The notes below the pieces were generated by a model. It had not been told where the DNA came from. It worked only from the letters and a program-made list of their open reading frames with translations, and searched no databases. The translations under genes and the position numbers were made by a program. From Candidatus Hydrogenedentota bacterium (GTDB taxonomy: Bacteria; Hydrogenedentota; Hydrogenedentia; Hydrogenedentales; SLHB01), in contig BTWA01000017.1 in the NCBI GenBank assembly GCA_045863295.1, forward strand, positions 1-64,000: a DNA stretch of 64,000 bases, given 5' to 3'. Shown in pieces: positions 1-36,310 of this stretch; the stretch's first letter is position 1; each line of letters begins with the position of its first letter.

Positions 1-14
1 AAGTCGCCTGCAAC

Positions 15-305
15 ATGGCCATGCGTGGCGTAGACGGCGGCCTGAACCGCGTCCTACGCGTTCTGCTGGACGAATTGGTCACCGAGTATAGCTTGCGGGA
101 AATCGAGAGTCGTATCGGCGTCTGGTGGAATGGCTTGAGTCTCGATGAGAAATTATCCGTATCCGGGGAGTACATCGCGAAGTATGGCCACTTGCTTCCC
201 AACGATGTGGTCGATGGCGGCGCGCACCGGCTTCGTGCGCACTTCCCGAAGTTCCTTGCCAAGCACCCGCTGCTCGTTCGAGGTATGCGGCAAACCATCC
301 GGTGA
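15..305 (+). CDS. Hypothetical helical protein, probably 5'-truncated by the window edge; paralog of 2754..3428
   Basis: Frame is open to the window start; shares the gapless pattern G-x7-LL-x22-LS-x2-E-[KR]-x11-G with the 2754..3428 product. Confidence 0.6.
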   Translation: MAMRGVDGGLNRVLRVLLDELVTEYSLREIESRIGVWWNGLSLDEKLSVSGEYIAKYGHLLPNDVVDGGAHRLRAHFPKFLAKHPLLVRGMRQTIR

Positions 306-382
306 CGAAGATTCCCTGAAACGAGAGGCCTGCCCCTGCCGCTATCCCTTTGAGGTACTGTGAATTTTGAGAGGGATTATCC

Positions 383-2845
383 GTGGCCCACGAAGGCGCT
401 CAGATCGCAAAGTGGCAGGCTGGACTCGTCAACGCCAGTCATCAGAATCTGTTGGTGCGCGAACTATCCAAAGGCTGTACTCCGGACATTGCCCCGGTGC
501 CCGTTGAGCTGGAACCGCCGTACACAAGCTTCAACTCCGGTCAACGTTCGCTACTCTTCGAGACGCAGGCGCCCTATCTTCCAGCGGCGAAGCCGCGCCC
601 GGAAGACCTTGTCCGGTACAGGATCTACGTTGCTCCGTCCACGGACATGGACTGGCGCGCGTCCGAGGACTTTATCAAGCAACTCGTTGCGTGCGCGCAT
701 CCCATCGTGTTCGAGGTCTGGGGGAATCGCGATGAGATCGTCATGAGTCTTATGTGTCATCGGCAAGACGCAGGGATGCTGAATATTGCGTTCCAGGGCG
801 CATTCCCCTCATTTTGTCTCGCGCCTGGTCCTGGCCCCGAAGAGCATCTCGCCGGGTGTGAAAGACTCGAGATGCTGGAGATCTTTCCGGAGCCGCCCCT
901 GACGCATCTGTTTACTCGCCCCATGGAGTTGGTGCGGCCCCCAGTTGGATTTTTCATCAATACGCTTTGCAGCCTTGATAGTTCGACTGTTGGGCTATAC
1001 CAAGTGTTGTTCAAGCCCGTCGATCGGCGCAACAACTGGCATCGTTACATCAATCTCTTTCTCGATCTGGAATACCGGGCATCGACGCTGTCTGGCGCCG
1101 GTCCTGCAAGCCGGTACGCCCAACAACTCCCCAGCGCCGAGTTACGAGGCATGGCAATGGATACGGACCAGAAGGCGCACAACGATAGAGCGATACTCGC
1201 TGCTGTCCCGCGGGTGCTCTTGCTGCACAAGGGACTGGCTAACACAAGTCCTGATGTCTGCGCAGCGTCTTGCTTCCTCTACCGGATCCAGCATGGTGGC
1301 CGGCCTCTTTGCGGTGTCACGGAAGCCGACTTCCTCCGCGCGCACTCACTCGAAGCCGTGAAGGAGATGATAGAACTTGGAATCACCTACCGGCCCGGCT
1401 TCATCCTCAACTCCCAGGAGTTGACCAGTTTCATCCACCTGCCGCCAATACCAACGACAGCTCAGCCACCGCCCATCGAAGTGCTCGATGGACTGCCGCC
1501 ATTAACCGTAAAGGATTCCGCATCCATGCTCATTGGCCATCGATTTTTGGCAGGACGCGAGGAGCCTGTCTTCGTGAGCGACGACACCCTCAAGCACCAC
1601 GGACACCTTGCTGGAGGCTCGGGAAAGGGTAAATCCACGGTGCTTGAGAACATGGCTGCCCACGATATCGCCCATGGGCGCGGATTTGGCGTGATTGACC
1701 CCCATGGGGACTTGTCGGCAAGGATACTCGGTCTCATCCCGGCAACGGAACATCATCGGGTTGTTTACTTCGCCCCAGGCGACCCTGACTGGGTAACGAT
1801 CTTTAATCCGCTCGATCTCCGCCCCGGCCAGGATTCCAGCCGGCTCGCCGACGAACTGCTCATGATATTTGAGGCAATTAGTGACGGCTTTGGCGACCGT
1901 CTGGGGAATTTACTTCGTCAGACCATGAGCGGCTTGATTCGCCTGGGGAACAGTACGCTTTTGGATGTGGAAATGGCATTGAGCTACAAAAGGCAAGAAC
2001 TCGAGCAACTCGTCAAAAAAGTTCTGCCCCATGTCATCAATCCCGTCACCGAGCACTTCTGGCGCAAGCTATTGAGCACATACTCCAATAGTGACGTGCA
2101 GCCAGCGCACAATAAGATCGGAAAGCTGTTCAGCTCCGATTCGGTCGCACTGATGCTATCTCAACCGAAGAACACAATCGACTTCAGGAAAATCATGGAC
2201 TCTGGCGAGATATTCATCGCTGATTTGTCCCACCTGGGCCCTGAACAGAAGGAGATCATGGGACGGATTATCCTCGCCATGATCTTCCTAGGCGCGGTGA
2301 GCCGGAGTTCCATGGACATTGCCAAGCGTTGTCCGTTCACCGTCTACGTGGATGAGTCACATAAGTTTGTTTCGCGCTCCCTGGAGGCCACATTGACCGA
2401 GGCCCGGAAATTCGGGGTGTCCGTCATCCTGGCGCACCAATACCTCAGTCAATGGGAAAAGAAGCAAATTGACGCGCTCAAGCAGGTGGGATTTACCATG
2501 CTGTTTGGCATGAGCGGTGATGACGCCAGGAGCCTGGTTAATTCGCTGGGAGGAGACATCGATCCAGCTGTCATCGCCCGGCTGGGGCGGGGCGAGGCAG
2601 TTGTACGCCTCGGAAGCGAGTGGGCGCGCGTGAAGACGCTGCCCGAGCGAAAGGATTTCTCGTCCACGCTTCGCGATCAGGTTATCGAGGCGGCCCGCAA
2701 GAAGTACTGCGTACGCTTTGATGAGTTGCTGCGACAATTGAAGAAGCGCAGTAATGTGTGGGCGGATGCGCGGCCAGCCCACACCGATACCAGTGCTCCG
2801 GAGGATTACCAGTTTGATCGACTACGCGCTCCGAAAGAAGATTAA
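383..2845 (+). CDS. VirD4/TraD-like (HerA/FtsK superfamily) coupling-type ATPase
   Basis: Walker A GGSGKGKS, IDPHGDL, Walker B VYVDESH, LTEARKFGVSVILAHQYLSQ motif. Confidence 0.85.
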   Translation: MAHEGAQIAKWQAGLVNASHQNLLVRELSKGCTPDIAPVPVELEPPYTSFNSGQRSLLFETQAPYLPAAKPRPEDLVRYRIYVAPSTDMDWRASEDFIKQLVACAHPIVFEVWGNRDEIVMSLMCHRQDAGMLNIAFQGAFPSFCLAPGPGPEEHLAGCERLEMLEIFPEPPLTHLFTRPMELVRPPVGFFINTLCSLDSSTVGLYQVLFKPVDRRNNWHRYINLFLDLEYRASTLSGAGPASRYAQQLPSAELRGMAMDTDQKAHNDRAILAAVPRVLLLHKGLANTSPDVCAASCFLYRIQHGGRPLCGVTEADFLRAHSLEAVKEMIELGITYRPGFILNSQELTSFIHLPPIPTTAQPPPIEVLDGLPPLTVKDSASMLIGHRFLAGREEPVFVSDDTLKHHGHLAGGSGKGKSTVLENMAAHDIAHGRGFGVIDPHGDLSARILGLIPATEHHRVVYFAPGDPDWVTIFNPLDLRPGQDSSRLADELLMIFEAISDGFGDRLGNLLRQTMSGLIRLGNSTLLDVEMALSYKRQELEQLVKKVLPHVINPVTEHFWRKLLSTYSNSDVQPAHNKIGKLFSSDSVALMLSQPKNTIDFRKIMDSGEIFIADLSHLGPEQKEIMGRIILAMIFLGAVSRSSMDIAKRCPFTVYVDESHKFVSRSLEATLTEARKFGVSVILAHQYLSQWEKKQIDALKQVGFTMLFGMSGDDARSLVNSLGGDIDPAVIARLGRGEAVVRLGSEWARVKTLPERKDFSSTLRDQVIEAARKKYCVRFDELLRQLKKRSNVWADARPAHTDTSAPEDYQFDRLRAPKED

Positions 2846-5526: not shown

Positions 5527-5808
5527 GTGGCGTTTCGTTTCGATGGGATCAAAGTATCATTCGTGCGCCATGACAGTTCTCCCAACCCTCGAAATCCGTT
5601 TGACCATTTGTCACCAGGAGAACGTGTCGCGCGGATACGACGCGTGCTGGCCCGTGTAGCATTGAGAAGAGTAGCCGACAATTCAATGCACGCTGCTGAC
5701 GAGTCTACCGCAGACCTCTCGGAAGGCGATGATGCCAAGACGCCATCAAGCGAACTCGTGGCGCCCACCGAATTGGCCGGTTGCGCACGCAAGGCTAGCG
5801 ACGTGTAG
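5527..5808 (+). CDS. Small hypothetical protein
   Basis: 93-aa ORF with a basic amphipathic helix (LSPGERVARIRRVLARVALRR), convergent with the HTH frame. Confidence 0.4.
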   Translation: MAFRFDGIKVSFVRHDSSPNPRNPFDHLSPGERVARIRRVLARVALRRVADNSMHAADESTADLSEGDDAKTPSSELVAPTELAGCARKASDV

Positions 5809-6211
5809 TTGCCGGTGCGATCTTTTTGAAAGCGGCAACTTGACGAGACTTTGGCGTGAGTCTCACCAAATTCCGCAGCTTCCGCTCGGAAATCTGAGCT
5901 ACTTGATCGGGAGATTGATCCAGGAGAGCCTGTTGTATCTCGGGAGCCAGTTTAAGCAGGTTGAGCAATTGAGTGACGCGCGCGCGCGATACTCCCATTT
6001 TGGACGCCAGGTGCGATTGATTCCTAACCTCTCCATTGTCAATCATTCTTTGAAACGACAGGGCAACGGACAGTGGGTTCTGTCGAGCGGGTTTCCTCGT
6101 TGTCTGATTCATTTCGCTCGTTGTGAAGAGTAGCTTTCCGTTCTGAAACTGCCTGAACACCGGCACGGGATGCCAGCCCTTAGCAAAAGTTCGCTGAGTT
6201 CGCGCTGCGCG
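5795..6211 (-). CDS. att-adjacent ParB/recombinase-C-terminal-like HTH frame, copy 1
   Basis: NQSHLASKMGVSRARVTQLLNLLKLAPEI; homologous to 23229.. and 34541..; conserved RTQRTFAxGWH begins at the att core. Confidence 0.7.
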   Translation of the reverse strand, partial: RAARTQRTFAKGWHPVPVFRQFQNGKLLFTTSEMNQTTRKPARQNPLSVALSFQRMIDNGEVRNQSHLASKMGVSRARVTQLLNLLKLAPEIQQALLDQSPDQVAQISERKLRNLVRLTPKSRQVAAFKKIAPATTRR

Positions 6212-6213
6212 GA
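6183..6213 (+). mobile_element. Element right end (attR-like) copy 1, core shortened to CGCGGA
   Basis: GCAAAAGTTCGCTGAGTTCGC-N4-CGCGGA; the 21-mer is identical at 23629 and 34932. Confidence 0.7.
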
Positions 6214-6608
6214 TCAAAATGACAAAACTGATTAAACGGCGATTGGTTAACATGATGTCAAAATCTCCCAGAAAGTTTGCCTGTTCTTGATTTGTTGCGC
6301 GCTGGGCAATTCTACCCAGGAAAAAGGCAAGAGCCGTCGTACGATCTACGCCATTCCTAACTAGGCAGTACGCAATCAGGTGATTCCTGGATCGCCTAAC
6401 GGCCATCGGGCACCGGCATCATCCACAGTGACAAGGAGTTAGGTGGGAACGATCTCACAGCCTAATCATGCAGAATAGTGAAAGTAGATTCATGGCATTG
6501 ATGTCGAGTTGAAATAGAATTGCGCTCTTACAACCGAAAATCTTGTTTTCATGTAAAATCCGTGGTCATATTGATTTACGCACATGTAATCTTTCGTGAA
6601 AAATCGAT

Positions 6609-23228: not shown

Positions 23229-23663
23229 CTACTGAGAATCGGAGAGAGCCACGAATTGCTTTCTCATGGTTTGGAAAGCCTCAAGCTGCTCTTGTGCAGA
23301 GGCAAGCTTGGTCATGGAACGCAGACGCCTCTCGGTAAAGAAGGCAATCGCGGCAGAGTCCTTTACGGCACTCAGTTCGGTGATGACTGCTGGTGGGAGT
23401 TTGAGGAGGTTCAGGAGTTGGGTGACGCGAGCCCGAGTCAGACCCAATTGTTGCGCAAGCCGGGCCCGGTCGCGGATCGTGCCCTGGTCCAGCATCTTTC
23501 GAAAGAACAATGCGAGCGCTACTGGATTGATCGGTTCGGTCTCTTCCGGTTCCCCGGCTGGGGTCACCGCGTATATCACATTGCGAACTAATGAGTTGCG
23601 ATATACCGGTGAGACGTGCCATCCGAAGGCAAAAGTTCGCTGAGTTCGCACTACGCGGAGCCA
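23229..23663 (-). CDS. att-adjacent HTH frame, copy 2 (frame continues to GTG 23714)
   Basis: WLRVVRTQRTFAFGWH...LAQQLGLTRARVTQLLNLLKLPP...FFTERRLR. Confidence 0.72.
   Translation of the reverse strand, partial: WLRVVRTQRTFAFGWHVSPVYRNSLVRNVIYAVTPAGEPEETEPINPVALALFFRKMLDQGTIRDRARLAQQLGLTRARVTQLLNLLKLPPAVITELSAVKDSAAIAFFTERRLRSMTKLASAQEQLEAFQTMRKQFVALSDSQ
23629..23663 (+). mobile_element. Element right end / att junction with tRNA-Asn 3' fragment CGCGGAGCCA
   Basis: 21-mer + N4 + CGCGGAGCCA, identical to the 3' end of the tRNA-like sequence at 35328-35337. Confidence 0.8.
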
Positions 23664-23673
23664 TGATATCCAG

Positions 23674-23703
23674 AGGGGTTGCGCTTCGTGCGTAACCCCT
23701 TTT
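23674..23703 (+). terminator. Terminator hairpin after the att core
   Basis: AGGGGTTGCGC-ttcgt-GCGTAACCCCT-TTT; near copy at 35346-35380. Confidence 0.7.
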
Positions 23704-23887
23704 CGTTTAATCACTTAACCCGCTCGATTGCACCCAGGTTCCTTTTGGCCAGTTTGCGAGTTAGCGAACTTTCGCGCACAGGTTCTACCGAATGAAGGGG
23801 ACGGAATCGGGCAAAGTGCATTCCAAAGCAAGCATTCTCATACCGGGTGGTGGCAAGTCGGTGCCAGTGCCTGTATCGCTTGGCCGG

Positions 23888-34124: not shown

Positions 34125-34540
34125 GTGGACAGCCTCATCCGGCAGAAGGGTATCAATCGAAATCCCAAATGTCAATAAACACGCTCGGTATATCCGGGGG
34201 CGTAAAAGCCCTCTGTGCGTTCAAATTATCGAATGACGCGGCTATTGATCGCCTACCAGCAGGCGTCCAATCAGGGCTACGGAGTGTTCGGCCACCATTC
34301 ATTAGGAGGCTTCTTAAGTTCCGAAAGCAGACAATCTCTCCGCCTGATCACACAATAGCTAACAGTCCAACCAGCAAACAGAACAATTCAACACTTGTCG
34401 CATATTCCATCATTGGATTGAATATTCGACTCACTTTTCGAACCTGCTGCTACTTGACCTATTAGCCTGACTCATACGAAGGAATACGCTCCATTCTCCA
34501 ACTCCCATTCTCTGTTTTATTCAAGCGATCGGGCACGCTG

Positions 34541-34966
34541 CTATTGAAGTGCTTTCAGTTCCTTCTTCAACTCCTGAAACATTCTGCCCTGTGCCCTTGG
34601 AGAGGAGAGTCTGGTGAGACGTCGAAGGCGCCTCTCAGTGAAGAAAGTGACCTCAACATGCTCCCGGGCGGAACCCAGTTCTTGGACAATATCAGGCGGA
34701 AGCTTGAGCAGATTCAGCAATTGAGTGACTCGAGACGGCGTCAAACCTACTTGCTTCGCAAGCTGCGACTGATTGTCGACCACTCCTTGGTCGAGCATAC
34801 TTCGAAAGGACAAGGCGAGCGCTATTGGATTAATCGGTTCGGCCTTACCCGGCTCATCCCGTTGGATCGTCGTGTATATAGCATTGCGATCTAATGAGTT
34901 GCGATAAACCGGGGACACATGCCATCCGTGAGCAAAAGTTCGCTGAGTTCGCACCGCGCGGAGCCA
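34541..34966 (-). CDS. att-adjacent HTH frame, copy 3
   Basis: WLRAVRTQRTFAHGWH...NQSQLAKQVGLTPSRVTQLLNLLKLPP...FFTERRLR. Confidence 0.72.
   Translation of the reverse strand, partial: WLRAVRTQRTFAHGWHVSPVYRNSLDRNAIYTTIQRDEPGKAEPINPIALALSFRSMLDQGVVDNQSQLAKQVGLTPSRVTQLLNLLKLPPDIVQELGSAREHVEVTFFTERRLRRLTRLSSPRAQGRMFQELKKELKALQ
34932..34966 (+). mobile_element. Element right end (attR) with tRNA-Asn 3' fragment
   Basis: 21-mer + N4 + CGCGGAGCCA. Confidence 0.8.
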
Positions 34967-34979
34967 TTTTGCTTCTAAC

Positions 34980-35004
34980 AGCCACCTCGCCGAGGTGGCT
35001 TTTT
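34980..35004 (+). terminator. Intrinsic terminator-like hairpin directly before the GIY-YIG start
   Basis: AGCCACCTC-gcc-GAGGTGGCT-TTTT. Confidence 0.7.
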
Positions 35005-35007
35005 CAC

Positions 35008-35259
35008 ATGTGCTGGGTATACATACTGCAAAGTCAGAGCACAGGCCGGTATTACTGCGGTTCAACAGACGATGTTGAACGGCGGGTCCGGCAGCATAAC
35101 GACTCCGGCTATCGCGGCACCAAGACGACCAAACGTTTTGAAGGTCCTTGGACTCTCGTATGGACAGAGCAGCACCCAAGCCGTTCGGTCGCGATGACAC
35201 GCGAAAAGCAAATCAAAGCACGCGGTATCGCCCGCTTTCTGGCGGATACGACGCGGTAG
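35008..35259 (+). CDS. Small stand-alone GIY-YIG nuclease (UPF0213/Slx1-like)
   Basis: WVYIL...YYCGST...RVRQHN...AMTREKQIK, 83 aa. Confidence 0.88.
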   Translation: MCWVYILQSQSTGRYYCGSTDDVERRVRQHNDSGYRGTKTTKRFEGPWTLVWTEQHPSRSVAMTREKQIKARGIARFLADTTR

Positions 35260-35337
35260 CTCAGTTGGTTGAGTCCCGCCGCAGGCGGGATTAACCACCA
35301 TGTCCCGCGCGTCGCGGGAGTCCTACCCGCGGAGCCA
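35252..35337 (+). pseudogene. tRNA-Asn-derived pseudo-tRNA with two hairpin substitutions
   Basis: CGCGG-TAGCTCAGTTGGTTGAG (acceptor/D arm), TTAA-CCACC-ATGT (anticodon 3' side), AGTCCTAC-CCGCGGA-GCCA (T arm 3' side, acceptor, discriminator G, CCA). Confidence 0.8.
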
Positions 35338-35345
35338 TTGACGTC

Positions 35346-35380
35346 AAAAGGGGTTGCGCTTCATGCGCAACCCCTTTTTT
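35346..35380 (+). terminator. Bidirectional terminator hairpin
   Basis: AAAAGGGGTTGCGC-ttcat-GCGCAACCCCTTTTTT. Confidence 0.75.
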
Positions 35381-35590
35381 GTAATACTCACCGCTGCTGG
35401 TTTCGCCCAGCCTCCTGTTAACCAGTTTGCGCCTCAGTGAAATCTCCGGCGCAGGTTGTGTCAAACACGGGGACCAGAACCGGGCAAAGTTGGAAGCCAA
35501 TACAGAAGTCTTATCACCAGACATCCGATTGGAACCGTAACGTCATCGTGCGCCTCGTTGTTCGGTCCAGCGATTGGCTCGGTCTGGCCG

Positions 35591-36310
35591 CTACTCAATG
35601 GGTTGCGGTAACTGACCGGTCGCAATGCGGTAGGCGATCGTGTAGATCACGCCCGCGAGAACCCCGCCGACATTGAACAGCAGGTGCGCGAAAATGGCGG
35701 GCCGCAGGCTGCCCGTCCGGGCGCGCGCCATCGCGCAGACGTATCCGAGCGCCGTCACTGACAGCACGATGACCATGACCGCGGCGATTTTCATATCGCC
35801 AAACAGCAACACCAGATGCATGGCGCCGAACAGCGCCGCACTCCACAGAACAGCGGTGGGCGTGTCGGCCCCGGCGAGCGTTTGGAACCAGGCCCGGCAA
35901 AAGATTTCTTCTACGAGGGGCGCGACAGCCCAAGTCAAGAGCACGAACCAGAGCAAGCCAGAAGCGGCAAGGTCCTCCCCGGGGCCTTGCAGGCCGAACG
36001 CCAACATGACGCCCGTGCACACGGCGCCCAGTGCGAGACCCCACAACTTGAAGTGGCCCTTGGCCGGCGCCGGGCGGCGGAATCCGAACTCTGCCAGCGG
36101 ACGCCTCGACGCAACCATCGCCCCGAACGCGACCGCCACCATCAGCCCTTGGGTCACGGCCTGCTGGGTCCACGGATACCGCGTCGTAACCGACTCGGGC
36201 AGGGCCCAAGTCGCGAGAAACGCGGCGACGAAGACGACGAGTGCGAGCCCGAATACGGCGAGCGGATTCCACGTCGACCCTCTCTGTGCATGATCAGGAC
36301 TTCGGATCAA
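35591..36310 (-). CDS. CPBP (CAAX/Abi) family intramembrane metalloprotease
   Basis: EEIFCR, FGAMH, HLLFN motifs; multiple TM. Confidence 0.85.
   Translation of the reverse strand: MIRSPDHAQRGSTWNPLAVFGLALVVFVAAFLATWALPESVTTRYPWTQQAVTQGLMVAVAFGAMVASRRPLAEFGFRRPAPAKGHFKLWGLALGAVCTGVMLAFGLQGPGEDLAASGLLWFVLLTWAVAPLVEEIFCRAWFQTLAGADTPTAVLWSAALFGAMHLVLLFGDMKIAAVMVIVLSVTALGYVCAMARARTGSLRPAIFAHLLFNVGGVLAGVIYTIAYRIATGQLPQPIE

Follow-up and report, generated by a model that had tools for sequence, protein, structure and literature searches.

In a 64,000-nucleotide stretch of a Candidatus Hydrogenedentota genome (contig BTWA01000017.1, our contig C17:1-64000; the whole stretch is called the window below), the gene for a small GIY-YIG nuclease, P0001, ends inside a copy of the host's own tRNA-Asn gene, and in this copy two short GC-rich hairpins have taken the place of tRNA sequence. 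Our analysis makes it probable that the hairpins are DNA recognition sites of the adjacent nuclease, an Ssn-like enzyme, and that both belong to a selfish cassette nested at tRNA genes. The source genome comprises 6.34 Mb in 88 contigs (56.6% GC) and holds tRNA-Asn(GTT) as a single copy, on contig C16 at c[37339,37414]. The cassette, of about 0.37 kb, consists of a terminator-like hairpin, the P0001 gene and the hairpin-substituted tRNA copy. Its parts, together with a further stem-loop behind it, are as follows.

34980..35004, forward strand: terminator-like hairpin AGCCACCT-cgccg-AGGTGGCT with a T run behind it, read by eye, 3 nt 5' of the start of the open reading frame (ORF)
35008..35259, forward strand: gene for P0001, an 83-aa single-domain GIY-YIG nuclease (PF01541, E 5.1e-18, residues 1-70)
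35250..35337, forward strand: pseudo-tRNA-Asn of 88 nt, with three exact blocks of the host tRNA-Asn, a change of A21 to T at 35270 and two hairpins
35274..35290, forward strand: hairpin 1, TCCCGCC-gca-GGCGGGA, substituting tRNA positions 25-34
35303..35319, forward strand: hairpin 2, TCCCGCG-cgt-CGCGGGA, substituting tRNA positions 49-56
35346..35381, forward strand: 14-bp terminator-like hairpin with a T run, read by eye, homologous to the hairpin directly past a tRNA-like remnant at 23674-23703

How much of the tRNA is left in this copy? The preliminary description, made from the letters alone, had recognized two 7-3-7 hairpins standing in for the 5' strands of the anticodon and T stems of a tRNA-Asn, with the 3' strands CCACC and CCTAC intact, and alignment to the host gene bears out both the anatomy and the derivation. 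Three blocks of 18, 14 and 20 nt, corresponding to tRNA positions 3-20 (35252-35269), 35-48 (35291-35304) and 57-76 (35318-35337), are 100% identical to the host tRNA-Asn (52/52 nt), and the hairpins fill both gaps. Hairpin 1 has displaced the end of the D stem, the anticodon stem's entire 5' strand, residues C32 and U33 and the anticodon's first base; hairpin 2 has displaced the 5' strand of the T stem and TTC. Besides the two 3' strands, the GCCA end is kept. The exchange at A21 is the sole point change in the retained parts. The stem of hairpin 1 can be extended via TGGTTGA/TTAACCA, and in a DNA fold this exchange adds one pair to the outer extension. The stop codon of P0001, TAG, coincides with tRNA positions 8-10, and the hairpins begin 15 and 44 nt past it. 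As Logan contigs from two other studies (runs X2 and X4) cover both hairpins with no differences, these are not an assembly artefact.

Judged by its sequence, the pseudo-tRNA is a dead spare copy of the host tRNA-Asn gene. ARAGORN, with which intact tRNAs were sought, calls no tRNA gene in the whole window, and with positions 25-34 and 49-56 substituted, a functional tRNA-Asn is ruled out. In Rfam nothing reaches the gathering score, and over 34300-35700 a threshold relaxed to E<=10 still brings up no tRNA model; the best match below threshold, the Xanthomonas small RNA sX14, scores 31.2 bits where 80 would be needed for gathering, draws only on hairpin 1 and the terminator hairpin and was rejected. 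A cloverleaf-like shape with a CCA end and no anticodon had been proposed for this element. The CCA end is there, five of seven acceptor pairs survive and the first anticodon base is gone, but the minimum-energy RNA fold is not a cloverleaf, and in relatives the 5' strand of the acceptor stem is, by eye, often broken or missing.

The motif TCCCGC-N5-GCGGGA occurs four times in the 6.34 Mb, where about one copy is expected from base composition, and two of the four lie here, 12 nt apart; the pair is therefore not the product of chance. A genome-wide dispersed palindrome of the REP/BIME type is ruled out with only four copies, and the label 'REP-like', which the preliminary description had attached to the hairpins, does not hold in the sense of a dispersed repeat, the other two copies being unrelated to tRNAs. 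One of them (C16:131403-131419) is a lone TCCCGCC-aac-GGCGGGA in a short intergenic gap, with neither a tRNA nor a GIY-YIG gene nearby; by eye, one flanking frame resembles the end of an EF-Tu gene and the other the start of rpsJ.

The combination of nuclease, hairpin and tRNA recurs across phyla. Scanning one genome per species for relatives of P0001 yielded 38 loci at 35-70% identity, in metagenome-assembled genomes labelled Hydrogenedentota, Nitrospirota, Desulfobacterota, Bacteroidota, Ignavibacteriota and Verrucomicrobia. An intact tRNA, called by ARAGORN, adjoins the nuclease gene in 24 of them (15 Asn, 8 Pro, 1 Gly), and the DNA 3' of the ORF is again a copy of that locus's neighbouring tRNA bearing GC hairpins. 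In the Asn group, a TCCCGC...GCGGGA hairpin is found between GAG (22-24) and TTAA (35-38), as is hairpin 1, and one locus (L004) has the identical 17-mer in the same place of the tRNA; in the Pro group, a 17-nt TGGCGCC-nnn-GGCGCCA hairpin takes the place of the 17-nt anticodon arm. Extra hairpins, with TCCCGC, TCACGC or TTCCGC stems, occur in the D arm, in or beside the T arm or ahead of the 3' strand of the acceptor, the sites varying by locus; second and third hairpins in differing arms fit repeated local gain. A hairpin with a TCCCGC, TCACGC, TTCCGC or TGGCGC stem is present within 300 nt of the ORF in 29 of the 38 loci, and the density is 51 in 21.7 kb near the ORF versus 19 in 78.4 kb farther off, most of the far ones forming tandem pseudo-tRNA arrays. 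The earlier suspicion that the two hairpins are siblings of one module rather than outcomes of random decay is thus supported by their kindred at other loci.

The arrangement of these loci varies. Two layouts are seen, intact tRNA, ORF and pseudo-copy in this order, or pseudo-copy, ORF and intact tRNA (L003), and hairpin-bearing pseudo-tRNAs stand on both sides of the gene in L002, L005, L006, L013, L025 and L034. Homologues of the hairpin at 34980-35004 are placed 5' of the ORF in L004 and 3' of the pseudo-tRNA in L002. In two loci, a tandem array lies directly upstream of the intact tRNA: in L001:628-1333 a unit of 75 nt, composed of leader, tRNA 1-24, hairpin and TTAACC, is repeated 9.4 times at 99% identity, and L024 has seven hairpins at 105-nt spacing, about 240-910 nt upstream of the ORF, in a tandem pseudo-tRNA array. 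The order in L001 is tandem hairpin units, intact tRNA, terminator and nuclease gene, with a duplication that takes in the terminator and reaches about 105 nt beyond the tRNA. In seven of nine judgeable loci, the tRNA blocks of the pseudo-copy match, by eye, the tRNA-Asn variant of their own host (exceptions L002 and L006). The blocks track the local variant, and therefore the copy was made from, or homogenized with, the local gene. The acceptor stem, also assessed by eye, retains at least five of seven pairs in the window, L001 and L008, and is broken or absent in L004, L006, L010/L012, L015 and L021. The spread is patchy, with any match in 23 of 61 related genomes and a match of at least 60% identity in only 5 of 36 other genomes of the same family. 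Carriage by phages was considered and rejected, as neither a match to the hairpin pattern nor a close relative of P0001 was found in 2.9 million viral contigs.

The association also holds when approached from the hairpin. The pattern GAG-TCCCGC-N3-7-GCGGGA-TTAA retrieved at least 120 metagenome stretches, of which 80 were analysed. A nuclease gene lies within 700 nt of the pattern in 43 of the 80, which again agrees with the tie to the GIY-YIG gene that had been surmised from the window, and an intact tRNA-Asn is present in 40, one or the other being found in 57. Where the flanks are complete (32 loci), the nuclease is present in 13 and the tRNA in 15; orphan copies therefore exist. The site between GAG and TTAA is represented by 132 distinct sequences, in which the loops vary freely, the 6-bp core being constant because the search pattern prescribes it. 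The seventh stem pair is Watson-Crick in 114 of these, in four pair types (C:G 59, A:T 35, T:A 12, G:C 8), and thus pairing itself is selected.

Could the selected product be an RNA? All 55 ORF-hairpin pairs in the analysed loci are co-oriented, on the sense strand of the tRNA, the ORF terminates inside the pseudo-tRNA, and the fold of this region as RNA is more stable than that of shuffled sequences (z -3.5). A tRNA copy co-transcribed with the nuclease mRNA might serve as a 3' stabilizer or processing signal, its tRNA-like end and GC hairpins blocking exonucleases, or it might bind and restrain the nuclease at the RNA level, in the manner of the repeat RNA of type III toxin-antitoxin systems; the order of tandem units, tRNA, terminator and nuclease in L001 recalls such repeat-RNA antitoxin loci. 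However, the two DNA strands fold comparably well (z -3.4 and -3.6), the RNA fold of minimum energy departs from the cloverleaf, the acceptor stem that tRNA-like processing needs is lost, by eye, in most relatives, the stems are conserved in sequence beyond pairing, and a terminator-like hairpin separates the tRNA side from the ORF. SsnA, moreover, is reported not to bind RNA (PMC11893778). Altogether, we regard an RNA role as quite unlikely.

P0001 has no domain beyond GIY-YIG, save for a sub-threshold T5orf172 match, and NCBIfam gives only a sub-threshold intron-endonuclease match. Its closest solved structures are the UPF0213 proteins 1zg2 (2.1e-7; about 100 aa) and 1ywl, together with SLX1 structure-specific endonucleases. 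Across a 29-row family alignment, from which L015, L029 and L034 were left out for stop codons in their ORFs, Tyr5, Tyr16, Gly18, Arg26, His30 and Glu66 are invariant. The family is under purifying selection: the ratio of nonsynonymous to synonymous substitution rates (dN/dS) is 0.09-0.15 in the three pairs with measurable dS, and the corresponding proportions of differences are pN 0.05-0.24 versus pS 0.39-0.89 in 11 of 12 pairs, the twelfth (L010/L012, from one genome) being identical. Two further GIY-YIG matches exist in the host genome. One, in a 653-aa open frame on contig C47, is taken to be UvrC on account of its length. The other is a small gene (C23:46110-46316, reverse strand) that is 31% identical to P0001 and has members of another palindromic repeat family (CCCTTCG...CGAAGAAGGG) on either side; gene and repeats may constitute a second nuclease-hairpin pair in this genome. 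A consensus scan for sigma-70 promoters and terminators over 34700-35600 returned no sites despite the two readable hairpins with T runs at 34980-35004 and 35346-35381, and the missed stem-loops may reflect a limit of the terminator consensus.

The nature of the proposed recognition is suggested by SsnA of Neisseria meningitidis. As reported by Chenal et al. 2025 (PMC11893778), SsnA, a GIY-YIG enzyme of 94 aa, has a single domain, characterized GIY-YIG enzymes being multi-domain; it binds the hairpin repeat NTS only as single-stranded DNA (ssDNA), cuts a few nucleotides upstream of it, and binds neither RNA nor double-stranded DNA. The sequence of the NTS stem matters and the identity of the loop is free. 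Mutation of Tyr, Tyr and Glu abolishes cleavage, the enzyme modulates transformation, and most homologues are bordered by inverted repeats of 20-50 nt, an IS-like 'hairpin-gene-hairpin' look on which the authors themselves remark (PMC11893778). P0001 shares with SsnA the single GIY-YIG domain, an approximate size (about 90 aa) and a location beside short GC-rich hairpins. The TCCCGC/GCGGGA core of both hairpins is contained in the NTS consensus CGTCATTCCCGCGMAVGCGGGAATCYRG, the cassette hairpins combine a constant stem with a variable loop, as NTS does, and the catalytic columns of the P0001 alignment, which are invariant, correspond to the Tyr, Tyr and Glu of SsnA.

On the reading of the hairpins as recognition sites, P0001 would bind or cut at them, its substrate would be ssDNA, and the spread of the cassette would be driven thereby. 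The hairpins would form when the locus is single-stranded and would act as DNA, not as parts of an RNA. The cassette would live directly behind tRNA genes, in an ancestral layout of intact tRNA-Asn, short spacer with terminator, nuclease gene and hairpin-bearing tRNA copy. The spare copy would supply homology to a universally conserved, highly transcribed tRNA gene, by which the cassette could be gained, duplicated or converted through recombination, and nuclease action at the hairpins would promote that recombination. The hairpins would bind the nuclease, would kill the spare tRNA and would leave it with homology to the real gene only in blocks of at most 20 nt. A single crossover on either side of them would yield both layouts seen in relatives. 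In the anticodon, T and D arms alike, the 5' strand and the first part of the loop are substituted and the rest of the loop and the 3' strand are kept, a placement that is in keeping with cleavage in the loops of a tRNA gene folded as a single strand. In the present genome, elements integrating at the 3' end of tRNA-Asn would later have parted the cassette from the tRNA.

A more far-reaching proposal, which we put forward only tentatively and consider possible rather than probable, is that such cassettes are mobile elements of a separate class not yet described. With its own hairpin as a guide, a minimal GIY-YIG nuclease specific for ssDNA would nick a tRNA gene while this is single-stranded during transcription or replication; host repair would duplicate the tRNA and copy the hairpin into the loop-proximal 5' strand of arm after arm, thereby 'writing' recognition sites into the spare copies and amplifying arrays. 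The two sibling hairpins of the window would then represent two successive writing events. If the cassette reading holds, small Ssn-like nucleases would be more than partners of dispersed repeats, namely the engine of a compact element of about 0.37 kb that colonizes tRNA genes in many phyla while sparing them. It would provide naturally matched specificities of hairpin and nuclease, anchored at a defined target that is universally conserved. Many fragments regarded as 'decayed tRNA', and tandem pseudo-tRNA arrays beside tRNA genes, would be accounted for, and there would be consequences for the way in which tRNA-linked islands locate their sites. In annotations, segments of this kind should not be named tRNA pseudogenes produced by decay.

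How did the cassette come to stand apart from the tRNA-Asn gene? Its surroundings contribute the following features.

34544..34954, reverse strand: ParB helix-turn-helix (ParB-HTH) ORF (PF17762 HTH_ParB, E 3.4e-7), the right end of the preceding cargo segment, outside the cassette
34935..34968 (34900..34967 in the comparison with its two paralogues), forward strand: degenerate tRNA-Asn 3'-end-like remnant resembling an attachment site, read from the sequence and ending in the left CGCGGAGCCATT
34957..34968, forward strand: left copy of the direct repeat CGCGGAGCCATT, at the end of the remnant
35328..35339, forward strand: right copy of the direct repeat CGCGGAGCCATT, at the 3' end of the pseudo-tRNA
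23597..23703, forward strand: paralogous junction with remnant and terminator but without the cassette, serving as comparison state

ParB-HTH paralogues on the reverse strand (5798-6406, 23232-23714 and 34544-34954) are each followed by a tRNA-3'-like remnant, which recurs at 23597-23664 (86.8% over 68 nt) and at 6170-6213 (88.6% over 44 nt). Of the three segments closed in this way, one carries an AEP primase, one combines TetR and hemerythrin with an ABC/OEP exporter set, and one has a P-type ATPase and an RND/OEP efflux set. The ORFs of at least 100 aa in window positions 1-46 kb yielded no match to an integrase family. Compared with the junction at 23.66 kb (23655-23669), the cassette site has 371 extra bases (34968-35338) between the CGCGGAGCCATT repeats, and past the pseudo-tRNA, on its right, the window shares homology with the beginning of the segment that comes after the 23.66-kb remnant. 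The succession of remnant and cassette is also seen in L012. Beyond the window, its positions 1-55 are the reverse complement of C55:1-55, and contig C55 probably precedes it in the chromosome; the end of C23 carries a paralogue of window positions 1-500 at 87.5%.

The stacking of three cargo segments that all close with a ParB-HTH gene plus a tRNA-3'-like remnant, and the lack of an intact tRNA nearby, would suit an inert relic, that is, a duplicate decaying after recombination at a tRNA integration site, with the hairpins as neutral palindromic scars. Yet the retained blocks are without a single difference from the host tRNA and the substituted parts are perfect palindromes; a hairpin occupies the identical tRNA position in 132 distinct sequences and across phyla; and attachment-site duplicates comprise the 3' part of a tRNA alone, whereas the pseudo-tRNA also has positions 3-24. 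An attL/attR repeat as the identity of the pseudo-tRNA is ruled out for this last reason and for the lack of a recombinase in the 371-nt segment; the remnant at 34935-34968, in contrast, agrees with such a repeat. We consider the inert relic largely refuted and very improbable.

Two histories fit the site. The cassette may have been inserted at a tRNA-3'-like site. Alternatively, an ancestral arrangement of tRNA-Asn, spacer with terminator, nuclease gene and pseudo-tRNA was later invaded by elements that integrated at the 3' end of the real tRNA and at the identical 3' end of the pseudo-tRNA. We favour the second history, because a 532-aa large serine recombinase with Resolvase, Recombinase and Zn_ribbon_recom domains (C16:35755-37353; L171:4756-6354) lies on the opposite strand to the host's only intact tRNA-Asn gene and overlaps the final 15 nt of that gene with its own 3' end; because the 3' flank of this tRNA-Asn lacks the spacer hairpin; because a related genome, in which tRNA and cassette are likewise split by an island, shows both junction types (L010 and L012); and because genome G010 has a repeat of the tRNA-Asn 3' end 15 kb downstream of tRNA-Asn. 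L002 and L004 keep the order of tRNA-Asn, spacer, nuclease and pseudo-tRNA, with a spacer hairpin homologous to that of the window. For the present genome we infer an order of tRNA-Asn, islands and cassette that is not assembled; no overlap was found between the ends of C16 and C17. Just upstream of the serine recombinase on C16 lies a second recombinase-like ORF with an HTH domain. A 2654-nt contig of run X2 matches 34543-34963 without difference and then continues into unrelated sequence, an indication that the remnant has yet another junction variant in that community.

Several observations weigh against a selfish cassette with Ssn-type recognition sites. The 371-nt 'insertion' is equally explained by site-specific integration of islands on either side of a pre-existing cassette. 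No empty allele was found in contigs of four runs, the sole joint (run X2, omitting 34968-35348, with GATATCCAG between) being the paralogue at 23.66 kb, and the tRNA-Asn 3' flanks of the cassette-less relatives G004, G007, G010 and G018 cannot be aligned to the window site. Neither nuclease nor tRNA-Asn is present at 23 of the 80 pattern loci, many of which are truncated by contig ends. As to the enzyme, the nearest solved relatives of P0001 are UPF0213 proteins, possibly a sister clade to the Ssn clade CDD cd10448; the hairpins lie only 3' of the gene, with a terminator-like hairpin of unrelated sequence upstream instead of an NTS-ssnA-NTS arrangement; and the published degenerate SRM pattern has 63 matches in the genome (both strands), none of them in the window. 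Finally, the strong purifying selection on the nuclease exceeds that of a purely selfish, decaying homing gene, and a host-level role is possible.

Such a role could be that of a decoy. The spare tRNA 3' end would offer elements a harmless landing site, or the nuclease would limit recombination or transformation at the tRNA locus, with the hairpins as its marks. Besides the selection on the nuclease, this would accord with the modulation of transformation by SsnA and its reported action at NTS-flanked genes (PMC11893778). The tRNA-Asn gene is an integration hot spot in this family, as the downstream 3' repeat in G010 and the serine recombinase at the C16 tRNA attest; in L010 it is the pseudo-tRNA, not the real tRNA, whose 3' end adjoins the end of an island, and in the window, too, the sequence right of the pseudo-tRNA resembles the segment start past the 23.66-kb remnant. 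However, an element did integrate at the real tRNA-Asn in this genome, and the patchy spread among relatives suits a selfish element better than a housekeeping function. We therefore deem a decoy unlikely, and keep to the reading of the hairpins as recognition sites of a nuclease within a selfish cassette.

Where does this cassette stand among known systems? From the system of SsnA it differs in that its hairpins are inside duplicated tRNA arms and nearly unique in the genome, whereas NTS is dispersed in hundreds of copies. The word 'tRNA' is absent from the main text of PMC11893778 and occurs only in gene descriptions in the 12 of its 14 supplement files that were searched. The host genome also has seven NTS/dRS3-like repeats (GGATTCCCGC-4 nt-GCGGGAATGACG; C1:204942, C3:202935, C5:11333, C22:2121, C22:75065, C22:82881 and C51:625) and two near-variants on C5, a family distinct from the cassette hairpin; none of the three GIY-YIG matches in the genome is a small GIY-YIG gene beside these repeats.

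Among homing endonucleases, SegB and other free-standing GIY-YIG enzymes are reported to lodge in tRNA gene clusters of T-even phages (PMC2330249, PMC13096335), and a 2026 abstract states that SegB promotes segmental amplification. The placement of a GIY-YIG gene among tRNA genes and, putatively for the cassette, a nuclease-driven inheritance are common to both, and the amplification by SegB recalls the arrays of L001 and L024. However, the Seg proteins are multi-domain phage endonucleases acting on double-stranded DNA, whereas P0001 is a bare 83-aa domain encoded in a bacterial chromosome next to hairpin-substituted tRNA copies. With IS200/IS605 and REP/RAYT systems, outlined in part in PMC11893778, the cassette would share a small nuclease paired with a DNA hairpin that is read in ssDNA, and hairpin copies that can multiply.

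Their enzyme is of the HUH tyrosine type, whereas P0001 is a GIY-YIG hydrolase, and their hairpins contrast with those of the cassette, which are few and tied to one tRNA gene. No strand-joining chemistry is known for the GIY-YIG fold. The CGCGGAGCCATT direct repeat, the stack of islands and the serine recombinase abutting the real tRNA-Asn are reminiscent of islands at tRNA 3' ends, but the cassette has no recombinase, and its tRNA copy holds the 5' part (3-24) along with hairpin substitutions. A GIY-YIG cassette with hairpin-substituted tRNA copies is not described in the literature searched, which comprised openly accessible papers and the Ssn supplement up to file 12. Provisionally grouped with the Ssn-type nuclease-hairpin pairs, the window locus adds two sibling hairpins in one tRNA copy and a separation from the tRNA by integrated elements.

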